In this document: piece after piece, positions 1 to 41,685 of the stretch
How the letters are laid out: each line of letters starts with the position of its first letter
Numbering within the stretch: position 1 is the first letter of the stretch
Assembly (NCBI GenBank): GCA_013289395.1
Contig: JABCZY010000004.1
Span: 1-44,142, forward strand
Direction: 5' to 3'
DNA: 44,142 bases
From: Bacteroidota bacterium
GTDB lineage: Bacteria; Bacteroidota; Bacteroidia; JABEUT01
Made by a program: the position numbers and the translations under genes
Notes under the pieces: model-generated
Seen by the model: only the letters and a program-made list of their open reading frames with translations
Database searches by the model: none
Told to the model about the DNA's origin: nothing

Positions 1-333
1 GTTATTCCTCTCACTTACACGGTAAGTAATGGTATAGTCACCAGGCTTATTATTTAGCTTATGATGGTTCTTATTATGTGTAGGTATCCAGGCCCAAACA
101 GGAAACCCATAAAAACAAGTCAGCCACCAATCGGTGAGCATATTCAATGTTTTGTTCTTCCACATTGGCAAATGGTTATGGTTATGAGCCATAACAGCTA
201 CTGTAACCGCCATAAAAAGGCACCATACATAAAGTATTGGATTCAATGATTTAAGGTTCCATTGAACAATAAGCAACCCTGTGGTTATTGCCATGTAAAT
301 AAGCGATTTAATATCTGCCCTGTGTCGTAGCAT
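1..333 (-). CDS. Membrane fatty acid desaturase, N-terminal part (runs off left edge; not in ORF track)
   Basis: Manual translation from ATG at 333: MLRHRADIKSLIYMAITTGLLIVQW...VMAHNHNHLPMW...WIPTHNKNHHKLNN, open to base 1. Hydrophobic segments plus His boxes HNHNH and HNKNHH. Confidence 0.88.
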   Translation of the reverse strand, partial: MLRHRADIKSLIYMAITTGLLIVQWNLKSLNPILYVWCLFMAVTVAVMAHNHNHLPMWKNKTLNMLTDWWLTCFYGFPVWAWIPTHNKNHHKLNNKPGDYTITYRVSERNN

Positions 334-419
334 ATTAATGGAATAAAAAAATTATGAATTTCCGTAGGGTCCGGCGAACTGAGTAGTCGCCACTGTTGAC
401 AAGGAATACTTACCCGGTA

Positions 420-427
420 CAAAGGTA
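420..427 (-). promoter_or_regulatory. Bacteroidota sigma-A -7 element (TACCTTTG) for the desaturase
   Basis: caaaggta on the + strand matches TAnnTTTG on the - strand, about 90 nt upstream of the ATG. Confidence 0.55.
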
Positions 428-515
428 GTCTTAAATTGTGAGCCATTTACATTTCACTGCAAAGAATCTAAAAAACTTTACGCCCGGTAAGGGTTCCTGG
501 CTTATAACTTCTTAG

Positions 516-1835
516 TCAACTCTGTGAGAGGGAGTTAATATCTGCAGACTGTGTTGCTTTTCCTGTTAACACTGAAATAAGCAGCCCAATATTAATTAAT
601 ACCAATGGTGGAATTGGTATATGAAATCTGTTATTCTGCCAAAAACTTATGCCTGATATAAGTATTAATGCGACAGGTATTATCCAAAGTAAAATACAAT
701 ATAAAAGCAGCTTGTTTTTAAGTTTTCGTCGCAATAGAAAAACAAGAACGATAAGGGCGCCAGCTATGAAAGAAATTAAAAGATTCATATAACCCGAAAC
801 TGTAGTACACATATTTCTAAATACCTGCAATGCTTTATCATTGTCTTGTGATATTGCAAAATCACCACCTTGCGCTGAGTTAAAGTAAATATCAATGCAT
901 AGCGCTTTGAATAATTTTATTTTGTTATATTTCACATTGTGCCACATATCATTACTGGCCATGTATTTTATGCTATCCCATTCACCTTTGTTAAAATAAT
1001 TCCAATATTCTTTTCCTCTTCTATTTTTTTCAAGATGTAAGTCGTCCCCTGTTTCCATGGAATGTACATATGAACCTATGTAGACATATACTGTTTTCTG
1101 ACCGTCGATTGAAAGTGTAAATGTTCCATAGTCTTTTTTCATCAGCAGCATCTGCCCCAGTATAATAGTAATGCCTGATAAAATGATCATTAAAAATGTC
1201 CTCATTTTTTTAAAACCAATGCTGTTTCTTTTTTTTATTACATGTACTAAAATCAGGAAAAGCAACACGGGTAGCAAAACCATCAGAATGGGCCTTGTGA
1301 TTATTGAATAACAGTAAATAAAAAACGCCCAGCCAAGTGAAGTAATATTTTCAGTTACTATATATTTTGCGGTAAAATAAGCTATGAGGGTGAGAATGAA
1401 AGTGTAAATGGTTTCAGAGAGGGCAAAGTTCACGTATTCTATATTACCTATCAGAATGCAAAATATACATGCACTAAGTAAAGCAATCTTTTTATTACCT
1501 GTTAACAAATTAAGTGTTTTGAATATGAGGATAGAAGTGAATATCCAGGCAATGAAATTCAGAAACACACCCCAATAAATAATAGTGCTATAGTCAGCTT
1601 TAAAAACGCAGGGTATTCCTAAAAGCAGTGGGTACCCCTCCCCTCTTTCAATGTTAGCTTTAAAACCTTGTTGATACATCTCTTTCGCAGCTTCAATATA
1701 ACCACTGGTATCTAAACCCTGGTGGCCCTCAATTACATAATAGTGGAAAGTTGGCAAGAGAAAGCTGACAACGAAATAGAATACAATAGAAATACCTACT
1801 ATAATATATATTTCTTTTTTATTACGCGTCTTCAT
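516..1835 (-). CDS. Polytopic membrane glycosyltransferase, GT-C fold (ArnT/PMT-like)
   Basis: Many TM segments; acidic first loop (LDTSGY), GYPLLL, LSETIY and RP motifs typical of ArnT/PMT_2 proteins. Confidence 0.7.
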   Translation of the reverse strand: MKTRNKKEIYIIVGISIVFYFVVSFLLPTFHYYVIEGHQGLDTSGYIEAAKEMYQQGFKANIERGEGYPLLLGIPCVFKADYSTIIYWGVFLNFIAWIFTSILIFKTLNLLTGNKKIALLSACIFCILIGNIEYVNFALSETIYTFILTLIAYFTAKYIVTENITSLGWAFFIYCYSIITRPILMVLLPVLLFLILVHVIKKRNSIGFKKMRTFLMIILSGITIILGQMLLMKKDYGTFTLSIDGQKTVYVYIGSYVHSMETGDDLHLEKNRRGKEYWNYFNKGEWDSIKYMASNDMWHNVKYNKIKLFKALCIDIYFNSAQGGDFAISQDNDKALQVFRNMCTTVSGYMNLLISFIAGALIVLVFLLRRKLKNKLLLYCILLWIIPVALILISGISFWQNNRFHIPIPPLVLINIGLLISVLTGKATQSADINSLSQS

Positions 1836-2235
1836 TTTTTATGCACTTCTAATATCGCCTAAACCAGTGGGCGAGTGAATATCAAAATTAGCAAAATATA
1901 TGAGAGGATCTTTACTAATCCTGCTCCATTCCTACGGCTCAAGTTACTAACGACGACTATGGTGATGCTGGGTTTCCAAGTGCTTTCGGTCCATTCTCAT
2001 CCTGAAATACACGAATGAAATTACGCTTCACACTTTATTCATTTTAAAAATTGGAAATGATCCCTCTTTCTTTTATATACCGTCAGGGCTATTTGTTTAG
2101 AAGATCAATCTTCATACTATTTTTCTAAGCATAAAGTCTTATATTTACAGAATACAGAATAACTACAAGCGGTATTTCTTAATGATTAGCTCTAAAGCAT
2201 ATTTAGTTGACCTACTCACGTTTAAGTATTAGTAA

Positions 2236-3039
2236 ATGCATGAATCTATTACATTAAAGAGCTTACAAGGTAAATTAAGACTGAAAATGCTTGATTTATA
2301 TAAAATGGCAAATGCGGGGCATATAGGTTGCTCCCTAAGTTGCATTGATATTCTAATTGCCTCTTTGATTTTACGAAAGATTGAATCTGATGACTTTATA
2401 TTATCAAAAGGCCATGCTGCCGGTGCTTTATACGTTTGCCTTAATTATAAGGGTGAGCTTACCGATGAGCAATTAATGACTTATTATAAGAACGGAACAT
2501 CATTACCGGCACATCCTGCAGCAGGTAAACATGCAGGCATACCTTTTGCTACCGGCTCACTTGGTCATGGACTACCTATAGGTTGTGGTATTGCTAAAGC
2601 CAACAAAATGAAAAAAACAGATGGGTATGTATATGTTGTTATGAGTGATGGAGAAACTAATGAGGGTACAACATGGGAAGCTTCTCATTTTGCAATAACC
2701 CACAAACTGGATAACTTGATTGCAATTATTGACCGTAACGGAATACAGGGTTTTGGCAATACAAAAAATATATTAGGAGATACCGCAGCGCCAGATTTAT
2801 GGAAGAACTTGGGATATGATATGAGAGAGGTTGAAGGCCATGATGTAACAAAAATAGTTGAAACTATAGATGAGTTAAAAGGACTAAAAAATGGCAGGCC
2901 TAAACTTATTATTGCGAATACAATCAAGGGTAAGGGGGTGTCTTTTATGGAAAATGAGATGGCATGGCACTATTTACCAATGAATGGGGAGCAATTTGAA
3001 AAAGCTAAGCTGGAAATTGAAAAAAATTACTTGAGCTAA
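2236..3039 (+). CDS. Transketolase, N-terminal (ThDP-binding) subunit
   Basis: GHIGCSLS, LSKGHAA, GSLGHGL, SDGETNEG...DRN and TIKGKG motifs; 267 aa. Confidence 0.93.
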   Translation: MHESITLKSLQGKLRLKMLDLYKMANAGHIGCSLSCIDILIASLILRKIESDDFILSKGHAAGALYVCLNYKGELTDEQLMTYYKNGTSLPAHPAAGKHAGIPFATGSLGHGLPIGCGIAKANKMKKTDGYVYVVMSDGETNEGTTWEASHFAITHKLDNLIAIIDRNGIQGFGNTKNILGDTAAPDLWKNLGYDMREVEGHDVTKIVETIDELKGLKNGRPKLIIANTIKGKGVSFMENEMAWHYLPMNGEQFEKAKLEIEKNYLS

Positions 3040-3041
3040 GT

Positions 3042-4067
3042 ATGAATTCTCCTTATTCTATTTCTGAAGATTCGGTAAAGCAATTAAATTCTTTGCCAGG
3101 GCCAATTGCAGTTTTTGGCGCAGGTGGCTTTATTGGTATAAACCTATTGCTTGCAATTCTTGAACATAGAAAAGATGTATATGGTATATCTCAGGATCAT
3201 CAAAATAATTGGAGACTCAGCGCATCTCATGTGCCAATGACCAATTTATTATCATGCGATATAAATGACTTTACGCAGTTAAAAGAAGTTATTGAAAATC
3301 TTAAGCCTAAGACAATTTTTAATCTTGCGGCCTACGGAGCCTACCCCAAGCAAACAGAATACAAAAAAACATACCAAACTAATTTTAATTCCAGCATTGA
3401 TATGTTGGAAATATTGAAAAAACAAGGCTTTTCCGCATACGTGTATGCGGGCTCTAGTTCTGAATACGGAATAAATAGCGCAGCTCCGAGTGAGACAGCT
3501 GAACTAATGCCCAATAGTCATTATGCAGTTTCAAAAACCGCCATTTCTTCTGCTTTAAAATATTACGGCCTTATTGAAAAACTTCCGGTGATCAATCTTC
3601 GCCTCTATTCCGTATATGGTCCATGGGAAGAACCTGACAGACTTATACCTGTTCTGATTTCGCATGCCCGTAAAAACAAATTTCCACCATTTGTACAACC
3701 TGATATTTCAAGAGATTTTATATATATTACAGACGTTGTTGCTGCTTTTATTGCAGCTGCAGCTAATGCCGAAAGTAACCTCATCAAAGGCCAATCATTT
3801 AATATTGGTACAGGTAATAAAACTACTATACGCGAATTAGCTATTAAGACAAAAAACATTTGCAATATTAATGAAGACCCCTTGTTTGGCAATATGCAAA
3901 ACCGGAATTGGGATGTGCCGGATTGGTACGCAAATGCGGAAAAGGTTGCAAAAGAGCTCAAGTGGAAATACAGAATTGAATTGGAAGAAGGGTTAAAAAA
4001 AGTTATTGCATGGCAACATGAAGTTGGTTTTGATAATGCTTACTGGAATTGGACAAATAAAATATGA
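3042..4067 (+). CDS. NAD-dependent nucleotide-sugar epimerase/dehydratase/reductase (extended SDR)
   Basis: GAGGFIG Rossmann motif, GSSSEYG, YAVSK catalytic motif, VYGP and RDFIY. Confidence 0.9.
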   Translation: MNSPYSISEDSVKQLNSLPGPIAVFGAGGFIGINLLLAILEHRKDVYGISQDHQNNWRLSASHVPMTNLLSCDINDFTQLKEVIENLKPKTIFNLAAYGAYPKQTEYKKTYQTNFNSSIDMLEILKKQGFSAYVYAGSSSEYGINSAAPSETAELMPNSHYAVSKTAISSALKYYGLIEKLPVINLRLYSVYGPWEEPDRLIPVLISHARKNKFPPFVQPDISRDFIYITDVVAAFIAAAANAESNLIKGQSFNIGTGNKTTIRELAIKTKNICNINEDPLFGNMQNRNWDVPDWYANAEKVAKELKWKYRIELEEGLKKVIAWQHEVGFDNAYWNWTNKI

Positions 4068-4747
4068 GTAACAATTTATACTCCATTATACTTCCCGCAT
4101 ATAAACAGGAAAACCAGATTTCATTATTATATGAAACCTATGTAAATGCCCTTAGTTTGCTAAGTGACCCATGGGAATTGATATTTGTTATAAATGGGCA
4201 AAAAGATAATTCGCAAAAAATATTAGAAGATCTCTCAAAACATGATCCCAGAATTAAAATTCATTATCTTGAAAAAGGTGGATGGGGCAGGGCAGTTAAA
4301 TATGGCGTATCGGTTGCTACAGGTGAGTTTATTTGCTACACTAATTCAGCAAGAACCAATATTGACGATTTGATCCTAATGTTAAAATACGCTAAAATAA
4401 ATGACAAAGCAATTATAAAAGCCACCCGTATTGTAAGAGAAAGTTTCTTCAGGAAGTTTGGTTCAATACTTTATAATTTTGGGAACAGGTTTCTTTTCAA
4501 AACCCCTGTTTGGGATGTAAATGGTACGCCAAAAATTATTCCCAGAAAAATGCTTGATCTATTCGAAATTGTTTCAGACGATGACTTGATAGATGCAGAA
4601 ATTATGGCTAGGTGCTTTAAAAGCAAAATGATGATAATTGAAATACCTGTTATATCAACTACTCGAATCAGCGGTAAAAGCACAACCAACATACGTTCAG
4701 CATTTAAGATGTACTGGGGCTTATTTAAATTAAAGAAGATAATATGA
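4064..4747 (+). CDS. Glycosyltransferase family 2 (polyprenol-phosphate GT / DPM1-like)
   Basis: SIILPAYKQE start, GWGRAVKYG, WDVNGTPK, EIPV...R..GKS. The DxD position reads YTNSA. 4-nt overlaps with both neighbours. Confidence 0.8.
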   Translation: MSNNLYSIILPAYKQENQISLLYETYVNALSLLSDPWELIFVINGQKDNSQKILEDLSKHDPRIKIHYLEKGGWGRAVKYGVSVATGEFICYTNSARTNIDDLILMLKYAKINDKAIIKATRIVRESFFRKFGSILYNFGNRFLFKTPVWDVNGTPKIIPRKMLDLFEIVSDDDLIDAEIMARCFKSKMMIIEIPVISTTRISGKSTTNIRSAFKMYWGLFKLKKII

Positions 4748-5913
4748 GGAGCGCTGAACGTATATGGAAGAAACAGAATGAAGCCTTCCGTAATCCCCTA
4801 CAGGTTATTTCGTCATCAATTGCTGATTCCGGCATCACTGCTGATTCATTAACCAATATACCTGATACAGGATTTGTTCATTTACTCAGAAGGCTTGGTA
4901 TTACTTTATTAGTAACCCGTGAGTATGAAAATATGGCAATGGCCCTTTATTCAGGTTCGAAAGGGATCTCTCAAACATTTATGCCACTCCCTCACCCTTC
5001 TGGTATTGCGGTTGACAGAAAGAAAAATGCAGTATATATCGCAGCAACAAGAAACCCCAATCAGTTAATAGAGTTCTGCCCCTCAATAACAAGCATTCCC
5101 AGAAAAGAAACCAAAATAAAACCTTTGCACACAGGTTATCTTTTGCCTTCACGGATAAAGTTCTATCCCGGTTGTTATTATTTTCATGATCTTGCCATTA
5201 TTGGCAAGGATCTATACGCCAATTCAGTTGGAATGAATGGTGTAATAAAAGTAGATTGGGGGAAAAGCTCAGAGGAAGATTTGACATGGTTCCCTAACTG
5301 TATTAAAGACAAGAAGGGAAATCCTTTAACCAATGCCAATTACATACAACTTAATTCAATTGCAGCAGGAAAATCAATTAATAGCTCCTTTTTTACTGCA
5401 TCAGGTTCCAAGATAATTAAACAACGGCCGGGGCAAGCAGATTATCCGGTGGATAAAAAGGGAGTTATTTTTTCGGGCCGAACAGGTGAGCCTATTGTAA
5501 AGGGCCTTACCCGCCCGCATTCAGCCAAGCTTTATAAGGGAAAAATATACGTAAACAATAGTGGGTATGGTGAATTTGGCCTTATTGAAAACGGAAAATT
5601 TAAGATACTTGCGACACTGCCTGGATGGACAAGAGGCCTCTGTATTTACAAGGATATTGCTTTTATTGGTGTTTCAAGGGTATTACCTAAATTCAGACAG
5701 TATGCACCGGGTATTAGCAATACGAAACAAGTATGTAGTATATTTGCTTTCTCGCTCACTGAAAAGAAAATTTGCGGAAAAATAGAATGGCCTTTCGGGA
5801 ATCAGGTTTTTGGAATAGATTATATAGATAGTTCTGTAAGCAAGGGATTTTATTATGAAACTACAGCACCGGTTAGTGAAATTGAAACAACTGTTTTTTA
5901 TACTTCTAAGTAA
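4744..5913 (+). CDS. DUF4915 / TIGR03032-like beta-propeller protein
   Basis: Family-like motifs FHDLA, QLNSIA, GLTRPHS, NSGYGE, LPGWTRGL and FIGVSR. Confidence 0.75.
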   Translation: MRSAERIWKKQNEAFRNPLQVISSSIADSGITADSLTNIPDTGFVHLLRRLGITLLVTREYENMAMALYSGSKGISQTFMPLPHPSGIAVDRKKNAVYIAATRNPNQLIEFCPSITSIPRKETKIKPLHTGYLLPSRIKFYPGCYYFHDLAIIGKDLYANSVGMNGVIKVDWGKSSEEDLTWFPNCIKDKKGNPLTNANYIQLNSIAAGKSINSSFFTASGSKIIKQRPGQADYPVDKKGVIFSGRTGEPIVKGLTRPHSAKLYKGKIYVNNSGYGEFGLIENGKFKILATLPGWTRGLCIYKDIAFIGVSRVLPKFRQYAPGISNTKQVCSIFAFSLTEKKICGKIEWPFGNQVFGIDYIDSSVSKGFYYETTAPVSEIETTVFYTSK

Positions 5914-5948
5914 ATAATACCGATTTAATAATCAATAAATTAAAAACT

Positions 5949-6890
5949 ATGTCAAGTACTCCTTACAAAATGATAATGATCTCCGCAATGTATGAGAATG
6001 GAGGCAATACCACCCACAGGCTTATTGATGGGCATCCTCAGCTTTTCGTATACCCATTTGAGTCGCAGCCGGGAACTAAATATGTGAATGATTATTTTTC
6101 AAGTATGTATCCTTTAAAATATCGCTGGCCTCTTTTTCCCGGCACCGCTGCTGCTGAAGAAATGTATGAAATGATAATTGATGAGGAAGGTAAGGTTCGG
6201 TCGAAAACACCTAATAGCAGTAAATTCAAAGGGGCTGACTTTAGATTAGATGACAAAGACAGGAAAAAAGAATTTGTTCTTTTCTTAAAAAACAAACCAT
6301 TAACAAGAGCCAATGCTGTTGAAGCATTCTTCAGGTCTACATTTAAATCGTGGAAGAATTACAACCATAGCGGAAAGGAAAAAGCATATGTAGGATATAG
6401 CCCCATAATAGGTATTGATGGGGATAAAATTATCTCAGACTATGGTAAGAATGGGCATGTTTTACACGTAATAAGAAATCCTTTTTCAGCATATGCAGAC
6501 ACCAAAAAGAGAGCGGTGCCTTTGTCTATGGCTCATTACATAACAGGGTGGATATTGTGCCAATACCAGTCATTACTTTTTGCAGAGAAATATCCGAACA
6601 ACTACCATATAGTTAGGTTTGAAGATATTATTGAAAACCCTACAGAAGTGCTTGGTAAAGTATTATCAAAGATGGGGATCAGTAAAAGCTCAACGCTTGC
6701 TTATCCAAGTTGGAATGGAGAAAAACTTAAGGAAGTTTACCCTTGGGGAACAATAAGGATACCAACTGCTGAGGTGAATTTAAAAACCGCCAAAGAACTC
6801 AGTACCCAGGAAATAAAAGAAATTCATTCCCGGACAAATACTTATTTGAAGCTGCTTAATTATGAAGGTTTCTATAAGAAACTTGTATAA
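5949..6890 (+). CDS. Sulfotransferase-fold protein with atypical 5'-PSB loop
   Basis: LIDGHPQL, HVIRNPFSAY and VRFEDII..P match the sulfotransferase layout; the usual RSGTT is replaced by ENGGNT. Confidence 0.7.
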   Translation: MSSTPYKMIMISAMYENGGNTTHRLIDGHPQLFVYPFESQPGTKYVNDYFSSMYPLKYRWPLFPGTAAAEEMYEMIIDEEGKVRSKTPNSSKFKGADFRLDDKDRKKEFVLFLKNKPLTRANAVEAFFRSTFKSWKNYNHSGKEKAYVGYSPIIGIDGDKIISDYGKNGHVLHVIRNPFSAYADTKKRAVPLSMAHYITGWILCQYQSLLFAEKYPNNYHIVRFEDIIENPTEVLGKVLSKMGISKSSTLAYPSWNGEKLKEVYPWGTIRIPTAEVNLKTAKELSTQEIKEIHSRTNTYLKLLNYEGFYKKLV

Positions 6891-6899
6891 TATTTCCTT

Positions 6900-7808
6900 T
6901 TGAGAAAAACGTTTTCAAATACAATTGAGGAACTTGCAACTTCAGATGAGAGTATATTATTCCTCACGGGTGATCTTGGATACAATGCTTTTGAAGGGCT
7001 ACAGGAAAAATTAGGAGATCGTTTTATTAATATGGGCGTAGCAGAGCAGAATATGGTAAGCGCTGCAGCAGGAATGGCCTATAAAGGATATAAGGTGTTT
7101 TGTTACAGCATTGCTCCTTTTATTGTGTATAGATGCCTCGAACAATTTCGTAACGATGTTTGTTTTCATGCTCTTCCGGTTTTCCTTATAGGAAATGGTG
7201 GAGGGTATGGATATGGCATTATGGGTTCATCGCACCATGCACTTGAAGATATAGCATGCCTGAGTGGCATGCAAAACAATGGGACATGGGTGCCTGCTTT
7301 CAATGATGATATAAAGCCTTTACTTACCGAAATAGTTGCGCAATCAAAACCAGCATACATCAGACTAGGGCTTGGTAAACCATCACCGGTTAAGCCAACA
7401 AGGCACGGTTCTTTTAACTGTATTTTTGAAAATAATAATGCAAAAGGAATAATAATTACACTTGGTCCGATTGCAAATAATGTTCTTGATGCCCTGTCAA
7501 CAAGTGGATTAAAAGATAAATTCAATCTCTTTTCACTTGTTTCTTTACCTTTAGTCGTTGATGATTATATGTATAAGAAAATGGCCGAATGTGAAAATAT
7601 ACTTGTGGTAGAAGAGCATATATCACTGGGTGGAATAGGGCAGCAAATCGGAAGCTTCCTCCTTGAAAAACAGATAAACCCAAAAAGGTTTATTTCTCTT
7701 TTCGCTAAAGGATATCCCGGTAAATTATATGGTGATCAGGCTTTTCATCAAAAATTATCGGGCCTGGATGCTGAAAATATTGCCAGGATACTAAAGGAAT
7801 TCATCTGA
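6900..7808 (+). CDS. Transketolase, C-terminal subunit (pyrimidine-binding and C-terminal domains)
   Basis: TGDLGY, GVAEQNM, SHHALED, PAYIRL and VEEH...GG motifs; TTG start. Confidence 0.92.
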   Translation: MRKTFSNTIEELATSDESILFLTGDLGYNAFEGLQEKLGDRFINMGVAEQNMVSAAAGMAYKGYKVFCYSIAPFIVYRCLEQFRNDVCFHALPVFLIGNGGGYGYGIMGSSHHALEDIACLSGMQNNGTWVPAFNDDIKPLLTEIVAQSKPAYIRLGLGKPSPVKPTRHGSFNCIFENNNAKGIIITLGPIANNVLDALSTSGLKDKFNLFSLVSLPLVVDDYMYKKMAECENILVVEEHISLGGIGQQIGSFLLEKQINPKRFISLFAKGYPGKLYGDQAFHQKLSGLDAENIARILKEFI

Positions 7809-7869
7809 AAATTACCTTAGTTTAGATTTGTGCCGCCTAAACCAATAACATACTACGTAGTATTGGTCT

Positions 7870-9015
7870 TTAAATACTGTGCGTTATAAATTTCATTCTA
7901 TATAACTGCGGAAGTAGCGGATAAAAATCATCGTACACCAAATTTATAAGTATAACTAATGCCACTATCCTGAAAGCTTCTTCCTTTGGGAAGAGTTTAT
8001 CTAGTAGTATCAGGATCAATATGAGAATTAATATATCATAGGACATGCTTCTGTTACGATCAACCAATGACTGTGAAATAAAGAGCAATAACAAAAAAGT
8101 CATAATGAGCAAAGTAGGGAACATATAAATGCGTTTTCTAAATAAAGCAATAACAACTAAAACAAAAGGGATAATAAAACCTTCTAATCCTATATAAAAA
8201 GTATTGAAAAGCTTATTTATCTGTGCGAAGAAAAGATTCTCAGCTCCGGTTCCCGTATATAAACCAAAAGCATTATGTAAACTATACCTGATTACAAAAT
8301 ATACGCCCCAGGAAACAAATAAACAAATACTAGAGGAAAATAAAGCGCCCTTTAAAATAGATCTAAAGTCATCAAAGCTATTATTGTCAATCATGTTAAA
8401 AAGGAATATAGCAGGCGATACAATCAGTGCTCTTTCATCTGAAAAATAAGCCAGTAACAAAGGAACTATGACATACATTTTTTTGCGAGCTAAAAGCACC
8501 ATTAAAAGAAAGTCTAATGAAAGTGTATCAAATACGCCCCTATAATCGGAACCATAAACATGCCCTGCAACTACAAAACAGATAGGTAAAATAAAAATAA
8601 ATGATTTAGCCCTGTCATTAAAAAAACTATTAAAAACGAGTACTAATAAATAGTAAAAGAGTACTAGTGTGAAAAATTGAAATATTAAACCGGGTATTAC
8701 GGTATATATGTGTAAGAAATTCAATATAACTGCAGGCACAAATCTAAACGCTATATTATCGCTATGCGGACCATATAAATGGTTTGTGTGATGATTTACA
8801 AAAGGTTGTGCTCCTTGTATAAAAACGGCATCCCAATTATTACCCATTTCATTTGTCCTCAATACCACATCATATGAAGGAAAGCTCCAAAATACAACAA
8901 TGGCAACTAAAGCGAGGGTAGATAGAAAGTAACTTGAAATGATTGTTTTAAAAAGTCTTGTGTTTATAAGTAGTTCCAGTAATTTTGCTGGATAAGACAG
9001 TAATTTTTCTCTCAT
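7870..9015 (-). CDS. Polytopic membrane protein, possibly GT-C fold
   Basis: About 10 hydrophobic segments with charged loop motifs FRFVP, FDT, SDER and DRNRS; adjacent to the sugar operon. Confidence 0.5.
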   Translation of the reverse strand: MREKLLSYPAKLLELLINTRLFKTIISSYFLSTLALVAIVVFWSFPSYDVVLRTNEMGNNWDAVFIQGAQPFVNHHTNHLYGPHSDNIAFRFVPAVILNFLHIYTVIPGLIFQFFTLVLFYYLLVLVFNSFFNDRAKSFIFILPICFVVAGHVYGSDYRGVFDTLSLDFLLMVLLARKKMYVIVPLLLAYFSDERALIVSPAIFLFNMIDNNSFDDFRSILKGALFSSSICLFVSWGVYFVIRYSLHNAFGLYTGTGAENLFFAQINKLFNTFYIGLEGFIIPFVLVVIALFRKRIYMFPTLLIMTFLLLLFISQSLVDRNRSMSYDILILILILILLDKLFPKEEAFRIVALVILINLVYDDFYPLLPQLYRMKFITHSI

Positions 9016-9403
9016 TTTAAAATAAACATTGAGCTAAATTATACAAAAAAATAACTCCATTTACTAAAAGTGATATCCCGGAAGGAGTTGAGTTCAATAC
9101 CACATGCTATTTATAACCAGCACATTGTAACAAAAATGCGGATCACCCTTATTTACTGTCGTTGCAATTATGGCACAAAATGGCTTCAAACAGTAAGGGT
9201 CGACAGCAAGAAAAAATTCACATTTTTTTGCGTAAAGCAGAAGGTCAGTTTTTTATTTTCAGTGAAAAATTTTCGTCTACTCATTTTTTGTTTTAAAATA
9301 TAGTTTCATATTGTTGACAGAAAATTTGTAACAAAACCTTTGCAACGAGTATACCTTGCATTCGAAATCAACAAAAGTTCTAATTTTTAAAACCCTAAGT
9401 ATT

Positions 9404-10042
9404 ATGAACACACAAAAGATAGCGTTGTTCACAACCACAGGAGAAGTGGGAACACGCCTGGCTGAAGAAGCCCTGAAAAGAGGTCACTCTGTTACTGCAA
9501 TTGTAAGTAACGAAAATGAGTTCAAATTAAAACACCCTAACCTGAAAGTAGTAAGGGGTGATGGAAGAAGGAAAGAAGATGTGAGCAAACATTCGCGCGG
9601 GCATGATGTTGCTGTTTTCACCTATGAGCCTACCTTAAAGAATCCGCGTGAACACGTTGACATTACCCGCAACATGATTGAAGGTGCAAAGGAAGCAGGC
9701 GTGCAGCACATTGTTTCGGCAGCGCATCCGCTTTCACAACGTATGGAAAGCACGGAAGAGTTCTACAATTCCTTTAAACCTGTACTGCAGGCACAACAGG
9801 AAGCGTTGAAGCTTTTGCAAAAAGAAAAAGGTCTTTCCTGGGGCTACCTGCACACCATTGAACCTGAAGCAGGGCAAAAACCTCGTGAGTACCGCATAAG
9901 CAATGAGGTTTACCTTTCGCAGCCACAAGGTCAGGAAAGGGTACAGTTAAAAAACTATACTAATGCCATACTAGATGAAGCTGAGAAGAGCCAGCTTGAA
10001 ACACACGAATCTCACTACACAGACGATGACAGGTTGAATTAA
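9404..10042 (+). CDS. NAD(P)H-binding oxidoreductase (flavin reductase / YwnB-like)
   Basis: KIALFTTTGEVG..LAEEALKRGHSVTAIV and GHDVAV. ATG at 9404 preferred over the TTG at 9356. Confidence 0.75.
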   Translation: MNTQKIALFTTTGEVGTRLAEEALKRGHSVTAIVSNENEFKLKHPNLKVVRGDGRRKEDVSKHSRGHDVAVFTYEPTLKNPREHVDITRNMIEGAKEAGVQHIVSAAHPLSQRMESTEEFYNSFKPVLQAQQEALKLLQKEKGLSWGYLHTIEPEAGQKPREYRISNEVYLSQPQGQERVQLKNYTNAILDEAEKSQLETHESHYTDDDRLN

Positions 10043-10063
10043 AGCAATCTGCTTCTCTTCTAT

Positions 10064-10102
10064 GAAAACCCCTTTCCCTTGCGGAAAGGGGTTTTCTGTT
10101 TT
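10064..10102 (+). terminator. Rho-independent terminator
   Basis: Perfect 14-bp stem gaaaacccctttcc / ggaaaggggttttc, 5-nt loop, followed by tgtttt. Confidence 0.85.
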
Positions 10103-10212
10103 ACACCACCAAGAAATATTGAATATCCCTAACGACTAAAGATTTTATTTATTCCTCAAATTATTGTATCTTTTTGAAGTTTTTGCATTATAAGTATATC
10201 ACCAGAAAAGTC

Positions 10213-11577
10213 ATGAAGAAACTGTTGCTATTTAAGTTATACTTTTTAACCCTGTTAGTCGGCGCCCAGCCAAAACCGAATAAATTCATTAAAGCATTCA
10301 GCCATCCGGTCTGGAAAATCGGCGGTTACGATGAAACAGGTGAATTCTATCCATTGCATGTCTCTGGAACAGTTGCTGTTGAAGAATCACAGAAAAAACT
10401 ACTTTCAGATACCTACCAACACCTTAGAGCATTTAACATTAAAACAGGGAAAACCTTATGGAAAATAAGTTGGGAAAATGACAACTGGTTTTACAATTCT
10501 TCTGCTATTGTATGGAACAATAAAATCTACTATACTGCTCATGGTATTTTATATTGCAGAGACATTAAAACCGGTGCGGCCTTATGGATGTGCCAAACAA
10601 ACAGCTATTTATGTACAAAGCAGACATATATAGCCGACTCTCTGCTATATACGTTTCCCTATGATAAATATAGTTCAAGCTACGAAGGAAAGAAAATGTT
10701 TGTGCTTAGTGCTTCAACCGGCAAAATCTTATGGGACTCAATAAACCCAATGAATATACCCAGCTTCGATGGTATACTGTATTCTTATAATAACAAAATT
10801 ATCGTCAAACCCGATAGTTTTTATATATGCTACAATGCGACTACTAAAAAAGAAATATGGAGATTAACAGCCTCAAATAAGAACTTCAATTATTATAATA
10901 TTGACTGGCAATGTACCAGGAGAGATACCATTTATTTCAGGAAGCACTTCAATATTTACCAAAATGGGTTTTACTTTATTAACATTGATACACTTATTTC
11001 TATTGACATGAACAGTGGGAAAATATTATTAAAATTTCAATCAATTGGATCAGTAAGGGCGGATAAAGAACATGCTGTTTTTTCTTTAGATGAGTTTTAC
11101 AATTTTACCGACTCAACACGAATATTCTCTCTAAACAAGATAGATTATATCAGTGGAAAAACAATTTGGAAAACAGAAATAGCAAAAGCGCCTTTAACAC
11201 CGAAAAACCTTGCCCATATGCATTTCTATCCGAATATCTGCTACAATGCTGATTCTTCCACTATTTACCTTTCAGTTGACAGCACCCTGTTTTGCTACTC
11301 GCAAGGCTCAGGCAAGCTACTGTCATCATTCAATTTACACATGTTTGTTATAGAACTGTTTTTAACCAAAGACTTCATCGTTTTGAATAGCGAATTTCCT
11401 TATCCTGCTGATATTGCAGAAGGTAATATGCTAGTGCTTGCTAAAAATGACTTCAAAAAATCTGCTCGGCTCCATTCTAAAAACTACTTTATTTTAGACC
11501 GTGCTTATCAGTATCCGGATATTCTATGTTTTCATGAGGAGCCTTTTGGTGGCTTACGCCTAATTAATATTAAGTAA
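10213..11577 (+). CDS. Secreted PQQ-like (BamB-type) beta-propeller repeat protein
   Basis: Signal peptide MKKLLLF...; repeated TGKxLW blade motifs (KTGKTLWK, KTGAALW, STGKILW, SGKTIWK). Confidence 0.7.
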   Translation: MKKLLLFKLYFLTLLVGAQPKPNKFIKAFSHPVWKIGGYDETGEFYPLHVSGTVAVEESQKKLLSDTYQHLRAFNIKTGKTLWKISWENDNWFYNSSAIVWNNKIYYTAHGILYCRDIKTGAALWMCQTNSYLCTKQTYIADSLLYTFPYDKYSSSYEGKKMFVLSASTGKILWDSINPMNIPSFDGILYSYNNKIIVKPDSFYICYNATTKKEIWRLTASNKNFNYYNIDWQCTRRDTIYFRKHFNIYQNGFYFINIDTLISIDMNSGKILLKFQSIGSVRADKEHAVFSLDEFYNFTDSTRIFSLNKIDYISGKTIWKTEIAKAPLTPKNLAHMHFYPNICYNADSSTIYLSVDSTLFCYSQGSGKLLSSFNLHMFVIELFLTKDFIVLNSEFPYPADIAEGNMLVLAKNDFKKSARLHSKNYFILDRAYQYPDILCFHEEPFGGLRLINIK

Positions 11578-12852: not shown

Positions 12853-15138
12853 CTAAATGCGCACTCCTATCACCAAAATATCATCTACCTGCTCTACTCC
12901 TGCTTTCCACTTCTCAATATGATCATCTAAATATTGTTCTTGTTGAGGCATTGTTTTGTCTTGGATTGCAATAAGCAACTGCTTGAAATTCTTTGTAGTG
13001 AGCTTTTTCTGGTTAGGCCCTCCAAATGTATCTGCATATCCGTCAGAAAATATATAGAATGTATCTCCCTGCTCTAATTCTATCTCATGCGAATCAAAAT
13101 GTTGATCATCTTCTGTAAATCCGCCAATTGCTTTTTTTGTTGCCTTAATCTCTTCTATCTCGCTTTTACCTTTACGAATCAACCAGAAAGGCCTGTTAGC
13201 TCCTGCATACCTTACAATATGGCTTTTCATATCAATTGAACATATTGCAATGTCCATTCCATCACGAGTTGATTCTTTGTCCTCAGATTGATGCAGGGAA
13301 TTCTTGAGTTCCTTATTAAGGTAATTCAATATATGAGAAGTATCAGTACTTTGCTCCACAGCAAGGCTCAATTTCTCTGAGCCTATTATACTCATAAATG
13401 CCCCTGGAACTCCATGTCCCGTACAGTCCGCCGCTGCAATTAAAACTGAGTTTCCCTTAGTATGAAAAAAATAAAAATCTCCACTTACTATATCCTTTGG
13501 TTTAAAAAGAATGAAACTTTGTGGCAACGCGGACATAATTTCATTTCTCTTGGGAAGCCGGGCATGTTGAATTCTTTTTGCATACGTAATACTGCTCGTA
13601 ATATCCTTGTTCTTTTCTTCAATTATCTTATTCTTATCTTCCAGCAGAAAATTAGCCTTTCTCTTTTGCACATAAGCCCTTGAAATAAATGTAGCAAACA
13701 ACAACACAAGCATTAAGCCGGCAATACTAAAATAAGTTATTGTTTTCTGTCTCTGTTTTTCTTCTTTCACAATTACTTCTTTTTTTTCCTGTTCCGCCTT
13801 TTCTATGGCCTTCTTTTTTTCATACTCGTTCCGCAGATTTTCCTGCGCAAGCGCTTTATGAATTCCATCTTTGTTTAACTTTTCACTATATATAAAATAT
13901 TGCTGATAATGGGCGTAGGCACTTTTATAATCGCCCAATATCGAATCAAGTTGTGCGCAACATTTTTCATCAAGCATGATACTTGTCAGTTCCCCGCTTT
14001 TAATAGCAAGCGAAAGTGATTGTTGCATGTATTCCTTTGCCGTTTTATATTGCTTCTGATCCCAGTATATCAACCCTAATTGACTAAGACCTCTCGAAGT
14101 TTCAATGTCATAATCCCCATTTTTGATTGAATTCAATGCATCGTTACAATATCTGATAGCCTCACTATAATTCGCCTCATTTTCATATACCTGGCATATA
14201 GCACGAAGAACTCTGCTTGTCATATAATTATTATGCCCTTTTACAATGGGCAAATACTTTTGAAAATACTCAAGCGCTTTAGCAAAATTCTTTTGTCGAA
14301 AATATAACTGCCCTATATAAAAATACGCGATTCCTACGCCTTTTTCATTATTCTTTTTCTCAAATAGTATTATTGCTTTTTTAAAATAATCCAGTGCGTT
14401 AGCAGTATCATGAATTCTGGAATATAATATACCTATATTAATCAGGTTATTGCCAATCAAACTTGTATCCTTCAATTCATTGACCACAGATAAACTCATT
14501 TGCATTTTCTCTAAAGCCTGAGTAGTATCCCCATAATCCATGTAAATGCTTGCAACTTGAGACAACAACAGCTGCATGCCTTTTTTATAATTCATTTTAT
14601 TTAATAACTCTATATTCTGCTGGTAATATTCCAGTTGTTTCATAACATTGCCCTGCCTTGCATAGTCAAACCCAATATCATATATAGTTTTAGCAAAGCC
14701 TTTATTATCATTAATTTCCTTGTATATCAAAAGCATTTTTTCATGATACATTAATGCTTTGGGAGTACCTCCTCCTTCATACTTCTGGTAATACTCTATA
14801 ATGCAGGAAAAAGCATTAGCCTTTTGCTCCAGAATAGATTTACGGGCACTTTTATAATTATCCACAGAAAGTAAACTATCTGCCAGTTTTACTAAAGGTT
14901 CAGCATACTTCAGGTTATCCTTAACATCGCATGCATCGCAAAGAGCGGAATATAAACGCAATTGGCTCGTATCGGCCTTTTCGGTTTTGATTAATGCAAG
15001 AAGTGAGTCTATCTTATGAGCGCTCTGCCCCATAATACCGGAAGCATATAACAAGCCAAATACCAGTAAACCGGCAAATCGCGAAATAGAAGGCCGGAAT
15101 ACTTGGTTATGAAACTGCACGCTCATTAATTTCTGCAC
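12853..15138 (-). CDS. TPR sensor - TM - SpoIIE/RsbU-type PP2C phosphatase
   Basis: N-terminal signal, TPRs, TM (YFSIAGLMLVLLF), then SGDFY, ADCTGHGVPGAFMS, DGMDI, SDGYAD and DDILVIG. Confidence 0.88.
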   Translation of the reverse strand: MQKLMSVQFHNQVFRPSISRFAGLLVFGLLYASGIMGQSAHKIDSLLALIKTEKADTSQLRLYSALCDACDVKDNLKYAEPLVKLADSLLSVDNYKSARKSILEQKANAFSCIIEYYQKYEGGGTPKALMYHEKMLLIYKEINDNKGFAKTIYDIGFDYARQGNVMKQLEYYQQNIELLNKMNYKKGMQLLLSQVASIYMDYGDTTQALEKMQMSLSVVNELKDTSLIGNNLINIGILYSRIHDTANALDYFKKAIILFEKKNNEKGVGIAYFYIGQLYFRQKNFAKALEYFQKYLPIVKGHNNYMTSRVLRAICQVYENEANYSEAIRYCNDALNSIKNGDYDIETSRGLSQLGLIYWDQKQYKTAKEYMQQSLSLAIKSGELTSIMLDEKCCAQLDSILGDYKSAYAHYQQYFIYSEKLNKDGIHKALAQENLRNEYEKKKAIEKAEQEKKEVIVKEEKQRQKTITYFSIAGLMLVLLFATFISRAYVQKRKANFLLEDKNKIIEEKNKDITSSITYAKRIQHARLPKRNEIMSALPQSFILFKPKDIVSGDFYFFHTKGNSVLIAAADCTGHGVPGAFMSIIGSEKLSLAVEQSTDTSHILNYLNKELKNSLHQSEDKESTRDGMDIAICSIDMKSHIVRYAGANRPFWLIRKGKSEIEEIKATKKAIGGFTEDDQHFDSHEIELEQGDTFYIFSDGYADTFGGPNQKKLTTKNFKQLLIAIQDKTMPQQEQYLDDHIEKWKAGVEQVDDILVIGVRI

Positions 15139-15554: not shown

Positions 15555-17807
15555 ATGTCTTGGCTTAATAGGTTTTTATTTTCATTTTTTGTTACAGGGG
15601 TTGGTGTGGTTTCCCCCTACTTCGCTTCTGCACAAAACTCTCAGATAGATTCGTTAACGATGGCCTTAAAAAAGTCAGTTAGCGATACAAACCGTGCATT
15701 TTATTTAAATAAACTCAGTTTTCAATATGAAAACATAGGAAACTATATTATGGCCGATTCTATGTCGCACCAAGCCCTAAACTTGGCAACTAAAGAAGGG
15801 TATAAACGTGGCATTGCTTTAGCGTACACTCAAATGGCAAGCGTATATGAAGATCAGGGGAATTATCAAAAAGCGCTGGAAAATTTCTCGAAGGCACTAG
15901 CGATTCGTAAACAATTAAAGGATAAAAGTGGTACTGCGAACTCCCTTAAAAGAATAGGTTTTGTATATAATGAGGAAAGTGAATACTCACTTGCCCTAGG
16001 TTACTTGCAAGAAGCCTCAATGATATACCAGGAGATAAAAGATAAGCATGGTATAGCCATGGTGCAAATTGATATTGGTAAGGTATATACCAACCAGGGC
16101 AATTACGCCAAGGCGCTTGAAGAGCATTTAAATGCTTTAAACGTATTGGAGGAGACAAATGATACCAGCAACATGATATTAACCTACCAGAACATTGGGA
16201 ATGTTTACAGCGGGCAAAAAGCTTATGATAAAGCTCTTGATGAGTATAGAAATGCACTTTTATTAAGCGAAAAGAAGCAAGACACCACAAATATAGCCGA
16301 TGCAGAGAGTAATATTGGCCTTACATACAGTAATAAGGGAGAATACCCGAAAGCCTTGGCAGAAAATTTTAAAGCGCTGGATATACGTACAAAACATAAT
16401 GACAAAAATGGCATTGCAACTTCTCTTATAAATATAGGTGGCATATATTATGCGCAGCAAGATTTCCCGAAAGCTTTAGATTATATTGGTAGGTCGTTGG
16501 ATATTTTTGAGAAGATAGGAAATAAGGACGGCGTTGCAGCTTGCCTTGGTGGTATTGGTCAGGTTTACCAGATGCAAAAAAATTATCCGAAAGCGCTGGA
16601 ATTTGAAAACAAAAGCCTGGACCTTGCTAAAAGTATTGGCTCACTTGATGATATTGCAAGTTCATACCTGACTTTGAGCAGTACTCTGGAGTTGACAGGA
16701 AATACAGGCAAGGCCCTTGAATACTACAAGGATTTTATAAAATATCAAGACAGCATATCGAATAAAGAGAATACAAAAAAAACTGTGCAGGCCGAAATGA
16801 ATTATAATTTCGAAAAGAAACAGGCCGCCGAAAAAGCCGACCAGGACAAGAAGGACGCGATACAGGCAGAAGCGGTAAAAAAACAGAAAATAGTTATTTA
16901 CTCTGTATCAGGTATACTGTTACTGGTTATTGGTTTTGCCATTTTTGCTTATCGCAGCAATTTACAAAAACAAAAAGCCAATCGAGAACTGGATATTAAG
17001 AACAAAAAGATAGAGGCCGCCTATACTATTATTGAAACAAAAAACCATGAAATAACCGATAGTATAAATTACGCCCAGCGAATACAGCAGGCCATACTTC
17101 CGAAAAAGAAAGAAATACTTGAGAGCATACCCGAAAGCTTTGTGCTTTTTAAGCCCAAAGACATTGTAAGCGGAGATTTTTATTTTTTTGCCAACAGGAA
17201 CAATACTAAATTTATTGCAGCGGTAGATTGTACAGGGCATGGCGTTCCGGGTGCATTCATGAGTATGATCGGATGGGAAAAATTGAATGATGCAGTAGAA
17301 GAGACTCCACATACCGGTGAGGTACTAAAGTTATTGAACAGGCGAATAAAAACAGCACTGCACCAATCCAATGACAGAGACAGTACACGGGACGGAATGG
17401 ATATTGCCATCTGCTCTATGCAATATAACCCCGGTGGATTGGATCTTTCTTTTTCCGGAGCTAACCGCCCTATATGGATAGTAAGAAAGGGTACAAAGCA
17501 AGTGGAAGAAATAAAGGCCACCAAAAGATCGATAGGAGGTTTTTCAGAAGAAGATCAGGATTTTGAGGAGCATCAACTGGCCTTGAAGCACGGAGATTCT
17601 TTTTATATCTTCTCTGACGGATACGCCGACCAGTTTGGTGGGGAAAAACAAAAAAAACTTACCACCAAAAAATTCAGAGAGCTCATACTTGATATATGTG
17701 AGCTTCCCATGAACGAACAGGAAAGACACCTGGATGATTTCATTGAAAAATGGAAAGTAAACAGCGAACAGATAGATGATATTCTGGTAATAGGTATAAG
17801 GGTATAA
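15555..17807 (+). CDS. TPR sensor - TM - SpoIIE/RsbU-type PP2C phosphatase (paralog)
   Basis: Signal peptide, regular TPRs (G.VY..QGNY.KAL), TM, VDCTGHGVPGAFMS, DGMDI, SDGYADQFGG and DDILVIG. Confidence 0.9.
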   Translation: MSWLNRFLFSFFVTGVGVVSPYFASAQNSQIDSLTMALKKSVSDTNRAFYLNKLSFQYENIGNYIMADSMSHQALNLATKEGYKRGIALAYTQMASVYEDQGNYQKALENFSKALAIRKQLKDKSGTANSLKRIGFVYNEESEYSLALGYLQEASMIYQEIKDKHGIAMVQIDIGKVYTNQGNYAKALEEHLNALNVLEETNDTSNMILTYQNIGNVYSGQKAYDKALDEYRNALLLSEKKQDTTNIADAESNIGLTYSNKGEYPKALAENFKALDIRTKHNDKNGIATSLINIGGIYYAQQDFPKALDYIGRSLDIFEKIGNKDGVAACLGGIGQVYQMQKNYPKALEFENKSLDLAKSIGSLDDIASSYLTLSSTLELTGNTGKALEYYKDFIKYQDSISNKENTKKTVQAEMNYNFEKKQAAEKADQDKKDAIQAEAVKKQKIVIYSVSGILLLVIGFAIFAYRSNLQKQKANRELDIKNKKIEAAYTIIETKNHEITDSINYAQRIQQAILPKKKEILESIPESFVLFKPKDIVSGDFYFFANRNNTKFIAAVDCTGHGVPGAFMSMIGWEKLNDAVEETPHTGEVLKLLNRRIKTALHQSNDRDSTRDGMDIAICSMQYNPGGLDLSFSGANRPIWIVRKGTKQVEEIKATKRSIGGFSEEDQDFEEHQLALKHGDSFYIFSDGYADQFGGEKQKKLTTKKFRELILDICELPMNEQERHLDDFIEKWKVNSEQIDDILVIGIRV

Positions 17808-38194: not shown

Positions 38195-38198
38195 AAAA

Positions 38199-38978
38199 TT
38201 ATTTCTTTTTAAACCAGGGTACAAATACTGACGTAGTCCTTTGGTATTCTTTGTATAGATCTCCCTTCGACCTGATCGACTGCTCTTCAGTCATGGGAAT
38301 ACCGGTAACCCTGAATAACAGCAGCAGAATTGTTATAGGGCTCAATATCCCGATCCAGCCACAATCAGCATTCAGTGAAACCATGAAATAACCTACCCAA
38401 ATCATTGATTCGAAAAAGTAATTGGGGTGGCGTGAATAGTTCCATAAACCGGCATTACACACCCTACCTTTATTCGCGGGATTGCTTTTAAACTTCTTCA
38501 ACTGCCCGTCGGCAATACCTTCACCCAAAATACTTATGGCCCAAACTACTACTCCTGCATATTCGAGCACTGATAGTTGAGGCTTAGGATTAAATGCAAT
38601 CAGAAAAAAAGGAATAGCGAGGTAAATATTTGAGAGCGCCTGCATTTGAAAAAAGTAAAAGAATTTCCGGTCAGGCTTAGGAGCCCATTCTTCACGTAAT
38701 TTCTTGTACCTGCCTTCTTCAACTTGTAAGTGTGATCCGACCCTTATCAGGAGATATATACCAAGGCGCATGCTCCATATTAATATCATGGCACATATTA
38801 GCAACTTACGTTCCCAATACCCTGTTGCCATTAGGCACAACACTATTGCTATAAACGAAAAGTTAAATGACCAGAAAATGTCAACTACACCTGCATTTTG
38901 AATGGCCTTGGCCCAAACCCACACAAAAAGCATTATTAAGCAAGAAACCAGTGTACAAACAAGAATAGTTAAAAGCAT
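38199..38978 (-). CDS. DUF1295 (steroid 5-alpha-reductase-like) membrane protein
   Basis: VDIFWS, EEGRY, GLWNYSRHPNYFFE, TGIP.TE and YQRTTS.FVPW. Confidence 0.9.
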   Translation of the reverse strand: MLLTILVCTLVSCLIMLFVWVWAKAIQNAGVVDIFWSFNFSFIAIVLCLMATGYWERKLLICAMILIWSMRLGIYLLIRVGSHLQVEEGRYKKLREEWAPKPDRKFFYFFQMQALSNIYLAIPFFLIAFNPKPQLSVLEYAGVVVWAISILGEGIADGQLKKFKSNPANKGRVCNAGLWNYSRHPNYFFESMIWVGYFMVSLNADCGWIGILSPITILLLLFRVTGIPMTEEQSIRSKGDLYKEYQRTTSVFVPWFKKK

Positions 38979-41612: not shown

Positions 41613-41685
41613 GATTCCGTTACAGTTTCGTTATTTTAGCTATATCCTGATATAACCCAGTAAATTTCAATTTAAATTACCTCAA

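Follow-up and report, generated by a model that had tools for sequence, protein, structure and literature searches.

A six-gene cassette that pairs a split transketolase-like enzyme with a DUF4915 beta-propeller in many bacterial phyla and may modify a cell-envelope sugar

GtrA/GtrB/GtrC and CsbB/GtcA/YfhO are three-component glycosylation systems, ArnA, ArnC and ArnT make up the Arn pathway, and the membrane glycosyltransferases of the YfhO and PMT_2 kinds use polyprenyl-phosphate sugars. Enzymes dependent on thiamine diphosphate (ThDP) are also described in sugar pathways: as far as the excerpts of the source go, for miharamycin and amipurimycin it has been proposed, not shown in vitro, that split-gene transketolases follow an oxidoreductase and attach a hydroxyacetyl branch to a keto-sugar, and YerE-type ThDP enzymes branch O-antigen sugars (PMC12247030). 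In the Actinoplanes missouriensis wps-2 exopolysaccharide cluster, genes for the N- and C-terminal parts of a transketolase (TK-N and TK-C) stand without an assigned role in the excerpts of that work (PMC13390465). Here we describe a cassette of six genes, encoding a split transketolase-like enzyme, a short-chain dehydrogenase/reductase (SDR), a family 2 glycosyltransferase (GT2), a DUF4915 protein and a sulfotransferase-fold protein, which was found in a 44,142-nucleotide stretch of DNA from a Bacteroidota bacterium (GenBank assembly GCA_013289395.1, contig JABCZY010000004.1), called the window throughout. The contig belongs to a genome bin of 1.87 Mb with a completeness of 52%. The cassette and the two membrane protein genes that flank it are arranged as follows, all eight open reading frames (ORFs) being found at the coordinates given by an earlier, sequence-only reading of this DNA:

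516-1835, minus strand: memA, polytopic membrane protein with 8 hydrophobic segments and no Pfam family.
2236-3039, plus strand: tkN, 267 aa, Pfam Transketolase_N (5.5e-33), ThDP-binding N-terminal subunit of a split transketolase-like enzyme.
3042-4067, plus strand: sdr, 341 aa, Pfam Epimerase (3.9e-43), extended SDR of the nucleoside diphosphate (NDP)-sugar epimerase/reductase kind.
4064-4747, plus strand: gt2, 227 aa, Pfam Glycos_transf_2 (8.3e-17), soluble, DxD-less GT2 of the GtrB/ArnC/DPMS kind.
4744-5913, plus strand: duf, 389 aa, Pfam DUF4915 (8.7e-43), predicted six-bladed beta-propeller, cytoplasmic.
5949-6890, plus strand: sulf, 313 aa, sulfotransferase-fold protein with an atypical donor loop and sub-threshold Pfam matches.
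6900-7808, plus strand: tkC, 302 aa, TTG start, Pfam Transket_pyr (4.8e-24), pyrimidine-binding/C-terminal subunit.
7870-9015, minus strand: memB, polytopic protein of an unnamed family of about 380 aa, with 10 hydrophobic segments and no Pfam family.

The six genes of the plus strand are tightly packed, with the transketolase halves first and last and spacings of +2, -4, -4, +35 and +9 nt calculated from the coordinates, and polytopic membrane proteins are encoded on the opposite strand on both flanks, all of which agrees with the sequence-only reading. The memA gene is divergent from tkN across a gap of 400 nt, memB is convergent with tkC across 61 nt, and the GC content is even over the region (0.32-0.39). 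No hydrophobic segments were detected in gt2, duf, sulf or tkC. An Rfam scan of positions 1-10500 at E <= 0.1 gave no match, and a promoter and terminator scan of 1700-9400, whose models do not cover Bacteroidota promoters, gave 32 and 3 sites where 32.6 and 5.3 were expected.

The six genes recur together far outside the window. A word-indexed protein search returned 2514 relatives of the DUF4915 protein at E <= 0.001, mostly unnamed or called 'TIGR03032 family', and a scan of one genome per species gave 322 pattern matches, 295 of which encode a DUF4915 relative. The locus counts reported here refer to the best 80 of those loci, fetched with up to 10 kb per side; metagenome-assembled genomes are the source of 79 of them, the remaining locus (L080) being that of Spirulina sp. 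06S082. When searched by tblastn with the window proteins, 78 of the 80 loci contain a relative of gt2, 76 of sulf, 67 of sdr, 65 of tkN and 63 of tkC, many of the misses falling at contig ends; memA and memB have relatives in none (0/80). All-against-all clustering of 1180 ORFs from 81 sources (the 80 loci and the window) yielded exactly six families present in 61-77 sources, the next commonest family being present in 8, and all six lie within 7 kb of one another in at least 43 of 77 sources. Such a gene set is far beyond chance expectation, and the co-occurrence of the six genes elsewhere, chosen beforehand as a test of the sequence-only reading, was thereby observed with these six families only. 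The hosts are labelled as Bacteroidota, several candidate-phyla-radiation groups, Cyanobacteria, Melainabacteria, Chloroflexota, Acidobacteriota, Planctomycetota, Omnitrophota, Elusimicrobiota, Desulfobacterota, Nitrospinota, Latescibacterota, Poribacteria, Dormiibacterota, Heliomicrobium and others.

Substantial variation was observed in the order of the genes. The commonest order is tkN-tkC-gt2-duf-sulf-sdr (15 sources), followed by tkN-tkC-sdr-gt2-duf-sulf (9 sources), and tkN and tkC are adjacent in most loci. The order of the window, tkN-sdr-gt2-duf-sulf-tkC, was found again in loci L026 and L029; L002, L019 and L025 have it with extra genes. Since the two halves stand apart in only a few Bacteroidota loci, their separation is a local rearrangement and not a property of the system, so the placing of TK-N first and TK-C last did not hold as a general feature.

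From the same loci it was revealed that the cassette consists of two separable modules, tkN-tkC-sdr (module A) and gt2-duf-sulf (module B). Five loci carry gt2-duf-sulf alone, and in four of these five genomes a tkN-tkC-sdr trio bearing the same GNGGGY signature is located elsewhere, unlinked to module B, its TK-C being 34-41% identical to the window tkC in the tblastn alignments; in the fifth genome there was only a partial match, at a contig end. The tightest link is that of gt2 and duf, which share 4 nt in the window and abut in almost every locus. Natural fusions are also present in the protein collection, namely DUF4915 with Sulfotransfer_3 (733 aa) and TK_N with DUF4915 (693 aa). A third fusion, P0276, which joins an outer-membrane barrel to a partial DUF4915, looks like a chimera. 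A self-contained pathway had been proposed by the sequence-only reading; with modules A and B lying apart in some genomes, the pathway is not entirely self-contained.

The nearest solved structures to the two transketolase-like proteins are the two chains of the Carboxydothermus hydrogenoformans split transketolase, with 6yak the best relative of tkN (3.7e-49) and 6yaj that of tkC (4.7e-23). The residues for the cofactor (D138 and N168) and for catalysis (H60, H93 and H245) are kept in 63 of 63 TK-N sequences and H29 in 61 of 63. In TK-C, where the residue counts come from 61 sequences and the positions of human transketolase were mapped by alignment, the cofactor-activating Glu is kept in 59/59 and His112 in 60/60. 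On these residues the transketolase-like pair looks catalytically competent. Five positions of the human enzyme, R318, S345, H416, D424 and R474, which we take to be the holders of the substrate phosphate and C2 hydroxyl, were also compared, and three of the five are replaced family-wide: the His416 position is Gly in 60/60, the Asp424 position is never Asp (Ala 30, Met 18, Asn 7, others) and the Arg474 position is never Arg (Lys 43, Leu 13, others). The Ser345 position is variable and Arg318 is kept (59/59). Such an altered pocket is consistent with a substrate other than a sugar phosphate. The NCBIfam transketolase equivalog cut-off is likewise missed (207 and 89 bits vs 488), and genomes G006 and G009 provide an internal control, as a canonical split transketolase with the His, Asp and Arg kept coexists in them with the cassette type. 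By its replaced pocket residues and by this coexistence, the cassette enzyme groups apart from housekeeping transketolases, a point on which the proposed pathway depended.

The solved relatives of sdr are NDP-sugar 4,6-dehydratases, 4-epimerases and 4-reductases (1e-20 to 1e-22). Its Gly-rich motif (G26/G29/G32), S138/S139, Y161 and K165 are invariant in 23 of 23 sequences, so that the Ser-Tyr-Lys triad is present, and no NCBIfam equivalog was reached (best 98.8 bits vs a cut-off of 365). Its substrate would accordingly be sought among nucleotide sugars, as these relatives suggest.

We give about even confidence to the reading that the cassette builds a modified sugar, which is placed on a cell-envelope acceptor by lineage-specific membrane glycosyltransferases. 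The chemical steps, their order, the carrier lipid and the acceptor, as we infer them, would be the following. In module A, tkN and tkC would form a heterodimer working with the extended SDR; the SDR would oxidise or reduce a nucleotide-activated sugar at a ring carbon, and the ThDP enzyme would add to the resulting carbonyl, or remove from it, a ketol unit of two carbons (hydroxyacetyl/glycolaldehyde), so that the sugar comes out branched or chain-altered. Module B, which is inherited as a unit, would act on the same sugar, most likely loading it onto polyprenyl phosphate at the inner membrane face and tailoring it there, while the propeller, rich in His and Arg and possibly dependent on a metal, would serve as a catalytic or substrate-holding partner. 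A GT-C enzyme would then transfer the sugar outside the cytoplasm, memA being the candidate here and YfhO- or PMT_2-type proteins elsewhere.

The genes next to the cassette bear directly on the last of these steps. Taking six or more hydrophobic segments as polytopic, a polytopic gene is immediately adjacent to the cassette in 36 of 77 loci, and in 23 it is co-directional with a gap of <150 nt. Polytopic ORFs make up 54 of the 250 within two genes of the cassette vs 22 of the 413 farther away (odds ratio 4.9, p = 4e-10, a value that overstates the significance since the loci are related). A Pfam scan of 40 polytopic neighbours placed nine in YfhO, six in PMT or PMT_2 (four above the cut-off) and one in DUF6044, while three have a membrane domain with TPR repeats only and one an F5/8 domain. 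A single Omnitrophota assembly contains two full cassette copies on different contigs (L037 and L052), and next to each copy lies a gene for a polytopic protein, one of them PMT_2 and the other matching the C-terminal part of YfhO.

The two membrane proteins of the window are of a different sort. For memA, only three relatives were found in the word-indexed search and no Pfam family was assigned, Glyco_transf_22 being matched only at E 0.14, and its look-alikes by language-model features in the protein Atlas (0.99) are ArnT-family, GT39 and PMT_2 clusters. As a lead and not a proof, memA is therefore a candidate ArnT/PMT_2-like GT-C glycosyltransferase. The memB family has 362 representatives at E <= 0.001 with D193-E194-R195, Y239 and D319 invariant; in 51 members no Pfam family was detected at E <= 0.01 (five chance-level matches, E 0.026-0.077), and its profile gave no solved relative by sequence. 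Relatives of memB occur in five of 400 other genomes of the phylum, at six places, none of them beside a cassette; three of the places are glycan-type loci with GT2, methyltransferase, DegT and PMT_2 genes and three are not. A phmmer comparison of memA and memB with the ORFs of the 80 loci at E <= 10 gave no real relative. The two proteins flanking the window cassette, which the sequence-only reading had called GT-C-like, are not its conserved partners, with relatives in none of the 80 loci.

The glycosyltransferase points toward carrier-lipid chemistry by its relatives. Its best solved profile matches are GtrB (5ekp, 6.3e-13), ArnC (9hwj, 4.4e-12, with further matches to 9bhc and 8vxh) and an archaeal DPMS (5mlz, 1.8e-10), so that all the nearest solved relatives are polyprenyl-phosphate glycosyltransferases, and the C-terminal R201-x-x-G204-x-S206 aligns to R-E-f-G-e-S of ArnC. 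With 227 aa vs 322-374 aa in these relatives, gt2 ends approximately where their membrane helices would start.

Several observations weigh against the envelope-sugar pathway. The DxD motif is absent from gt2, where D-A-D of GtrB/ArnC aligns to N94-S-A96, followed by R97 (invariant in 22/22), and so is the nucleotide-binding Asp, as the Asp of D-G-S aligns to N44 (also invariant in 22/22); membrane helices are missing too, with no hydrophobic 19-residue segment and a maximum mean hydropathy of 1.08. For lack of all three, gt2 may not make a polyprenyl-phosphate sugar from an NDP-sugar. Among the scanned polytopic neighbours, 17 of 40 have no family and three are unrelated transporters or receptors, and 41 of 77 loci, many of them cut by contig ends, have no immediately adjacent polytopic gene. 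No flippase was found among the conserved families of the 81 sources, the membrane genes of the window lie on the opposite strand without relatives beside other cassettes, and no functional class stands out for duf in the structure searches. The sequence-only reading had also suggested the logic of a short GT2 acting with a GT-C enzyme; this is supported by the YfhO and PMT_2 proteins that stand, often co-directionally, beside the cassette in other loci, but simple GtrB/ArnC chemistry cannot be assumed for a GT2 without DxD and the nucleotide-binding Asp. From its sequence, a metal-independent mechanism with Arg97, or a donor other than an NDP-sugar, is possible for gt2.

The same evidence leaves some room for a small, soluble product, for instance a modified sugar, a glycoside or a signalling or protective metabolite, made without a carrier lipid, the membrane neighbours reflecting only a general envelope location. 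All six proteins are without the membrane segments typical of carrier-lipid enzymes, the GT2 lacks both DxD and the helices of polyprenyl-phosphate transferases, neither a flippase nor a single GT-C family is conserved, and the cassette is found in very different genomic surroundings. We nevertheless consider a soluble product unlikely, given the enrichment of polytopic genes beside the cassette, with its 23 closely spaced co-directional cases, the 15 of 40 scanned neighbours with YfhO or PMT/PMT_2 domains, and the polyprenyl-phosphate enzymes that make up all the nearest solved relatives of the GT2.

The duf protein matches PF16261 with 147.2 bits vs a cut-off of 35 and is not a TIGR03032 equivalog (80 bits vs a cut-off of 251.5). 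Its AlphaFold2 model (pLDDT 95.1, pTM 0.94) shows a propeller of six blades that is capped by helices at the N-terminus, and the structure matches obtained with Foldseek and an exhaustive VIA-align search are generic propellers of the YWTD, NHL and SGL types, the top match being 1npe (Z 25), followed by lactonases (Z 21) and peptidyl-hydroxyglycine lyase (PAL, Z 20.4). By sequence, the DUF4915 profile matches solved structures at chance level only (E >= 0.16), and in the protein Atlas, with PF16261 excluded, unnamed clusters were returned together with one at 0.88 in which 20% of the members have NHL repeats. Fifty residues are invariant in 64 duf sequences, including H84, H148, D149, H259, R59, R103, R257 and R297, and in the model the invariant His, Asp and Arg residues lie at or beside the strand starts of successive blades. 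These residues would thus sit where propellers commonly have their active site.

A canonical DUF4915 (371 bits) was observed in a different context in a complete Bacteroidota genome (L107:5882-11231, G285:C16), between a CarboxypepD_reg gene of outer-membrane type and a gene for an FG-GAP protein with a type IX secretion system (T9SS) sorting tail, and the fused P0276 may reflect an adjacency of this type. As the one canonical DUF4915 that was examined stands in this unrelated context, the functional context that the cassette had been expected to give DUF4915 holds for the cassette subclade but does not extend to DUF4915 at large.

The label 'sulfotransferase-like' given to sulf was sound at the level of the fold. 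Pfam matches are sub-threshold (Sulfotransfer_3, 17.9 bits vs a cut-off of 27), but the AlphaFold2 model (pLDDT 93.3) confirms a sulfotransferase fold: all 17 listed Foldseek matches at E <= 0.001 are sulfotransferases, with the CurM sulfotransferase (4gbm, 8.9e-07), the olefin synthase (OLS) sulfotransferase (4gox) and TPST2 at the top (8.9e-07 to 1e-05; TM 0.50-0.57; sequence identity 10-14%). Across 51 sequences R176-N177-P178 and S180 (R176-N-P-x-S180) are invariant, and the sulf profile matches the CurM sulfotransferase marginally (0.012) over this region, RNP aligning to its R-H-P. The loop Y15-E-N-G-G-N-T-T22, which connects strand 8-13 to helix 19-26, shows little or no variation in the same 51 sequences.

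Sulfotransferases that use 3'-phosphoadenosine 5'-phosphosulfate (PAPS) have a 5'-phosphosulfate loop of the form P-K/R-S-G-T-T. If sulf used PAPS, the pathway could end in a sulfated sugar, with the propeller possibly serving as a second sulfate-relay component, and caprazamycin is reportedly sulfated in two steps. The clear fold, the alignment of the 3'-phosphate-binding RNP region to the CurM sulfotransferase, an adenosine 5'-phosphosulfate (APS) kinase in the window's own genome (213.5 bits) and the DUF4915+Sulfotransfer_3 fusion speak for sulfation, and propeller aryl-sulfotransferases are among the duf matches (3elq, Z 19.8; Cpz4 9kf6, Z 19.0), although they rank no higher than generic propellers. 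Against it, no Lys or Arg occupies the place of the basic residue in the donor loop, in a register that was inferred and not taken from a residue-level structural alignment. In ten other hosts APS kinase was strongly matched in one (Heliomicrobium), weakly and partially in two and not at all in seven, vs 11 of 14 control genomes, and none of the four candidate-phyla-radiation host genomes searched had one. ATP sulfurylase and the CysD/PAPS_reduct families were found in none of five small-genome hosts (0/5), vs five and 14 of the 14 controls, respectively. Because the host genomes searched are metagenome-assembled bins whose completeness was not established, the missing sulfate-activation genes count against PAPS dependence without being decisive. 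We regard PAPS-dependent sulfation as doubtful, and a sulfated end product as less probable than a soluble one.

Textbook motifs are lost in three enzymes of the cassette, which leaves room for new chemistry. Rather tentatively, and well short of an even chance, module B may be a new enzyme system, perhaps a complex, that performs neither NDP-sugar transfer nor PAPS sulfation and works with a different donor on a phosphate-bearing sugar or lipid intermediate; if this is true, it would give DUF4915 its first function. An ordinary or catabolic split transketolase amid unrelated sugar genes with no common pathway is hardly credible: split transketolases are common housekeeping enzymes and the nearest structure is that of the housekeeping-type C. 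hydrogenoformans enzyme, but housekeeping function and chance adjacency were both rejected on the six families travelling together over many phyla, the phosphate-binding residues replaced family-wide, the canonical split transketolases coexisting in the same genomes and the missed NCBIfam cut-offs.

The cassette is patchily distributed and has probably been transferred horizontally. Within the phylum of the window, the sulf profile had no match in 400 other sampled genomes, and the DUF4915 subclade profile had one weak match (1e-22) in the same set. A quick maximum-likelihood tree of 71 DUF4915 proteins, unrooted and with many weak forks, revealed two fully supported groups, one with Bacteroidota and all four candidate-phyla-radiation rows, and another in which Acidobacteriota, Cyanobacteria, Chloroflexota and others are mixed. 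Rare, patchy occurrence and interleaved phyla fit horizontal spread. One bin labelled Asaia bogorensis, of the Pseudomonadota (L006), has a DUF4915 that groups with that of Taibaiella (Bacteroidota) and a YfhO neighbour as in Chitinophagales loci, and the contig may be mis-binned. The cassette is also carried by candidate-phyla-radiation bacteria with genomes of about 1 Mb, and its retention there suggests that the product matters for the surface of biosynthesis-poor cells. No description of the cassette was found among the papers listed in the literature searched, supplements being outside its scope; the full-text search gave no paper on DUF4915 or TIGR03032, nothing relevant joining transketolase, YfhO and glycosyltransferase, and nothing joining transketolase, O-antigen gene cluster and branched sugar. 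That the hosts are nearly all uncultured would explain this lack of study.

Other features were observed elsewhere in the window. For a ComM-like gene at 39069-39926 (ChlI/Mg_chelatase), only the first 91 of 207 Mg_chelatase profile positions are matched, and the gene runs into a large serine recombinase gene (39903-41612, minus strand), which is followed by tyrosine-integrase genes at 41854-43005 and 43043-43486, so that 39069-43486 looks like a mobile element inserted into comM. Two divergent paralogous genes (12853-15138, minus strand, and 15555-17807, plus strand) encode TPR proteins with a SpoIIE (PP2C-type phosphatase) domain, the first of which resembles the SiaA biofilm phosphatase (4.6e-50, below its cut-off). 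Acyltransferase, CMAS-type methyltransferase and DUF1295/steroid-reductase-like genes stand together at 35986-38978 as a possible lipid-modification set, and the T9SS sorting domains that occur in window proteins point, as do the nearest relatives of duf, to Bacteroidota.

The cassette offers a compact set for asking whether transketolase-type enzymes branch or remodel activated sugars, and it bears on the role of DUF4915 propellers and on what GT-A-fold and sulfotransferase-fold proteins are capable of after the loss of their donor-binding motifs. Compared with the GtrA/GtrB/GtrC, CsbB/GtcA/YfhO and Arn systems, the likeness lies in a GT2 nearest to GtrB, ArnC and DPMS, in an SDR of the NDP-sugar type, as in ArnA, and in the YfhO or PMT_2 proteins adjoining the cassette in many loci. 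It differs from them in that its GT2 is without DxD, the Asp and the helices and no flippase is conserved, and the obligatory transketolase-like enzyme, the propeller and the sulfotransferase-fold protein have no counterpart there. The 'activating' sulfotransferases of CurM and olefin synthase and the tyrosylprotein sulfotransferases are the best structural matches of sulf and have the RNP region in common with it, but identity is low (10-14%), the donor loop of sulf lacks the basic residue and several cassette hosts have no detected sulfate-activation genes. YerE belongs to another ThDP superfamily than the cassette transketolase. The wps-2 cluster resembles the cassette in having split transketolase genes inside a glycan locus, whereas it contains DegT aminotransferase and Wzx/Wzy genes, and the excerpts of that work mention no DUF4915, GT2 or sulfotransferase-fold partner (PMC13390465). 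The nearest precedent for module A, as far as the excerpted account reaches, is found in miharamycin and amipurimycin, where a split transketolase is likewise paired with an oxidoreductase in a sugar pathway, the difference being that those genes belong to Streptomyces antibiotic clusters, while the cassette is an envelope-associated set of many phyla with three extra partners (PMC12247030).

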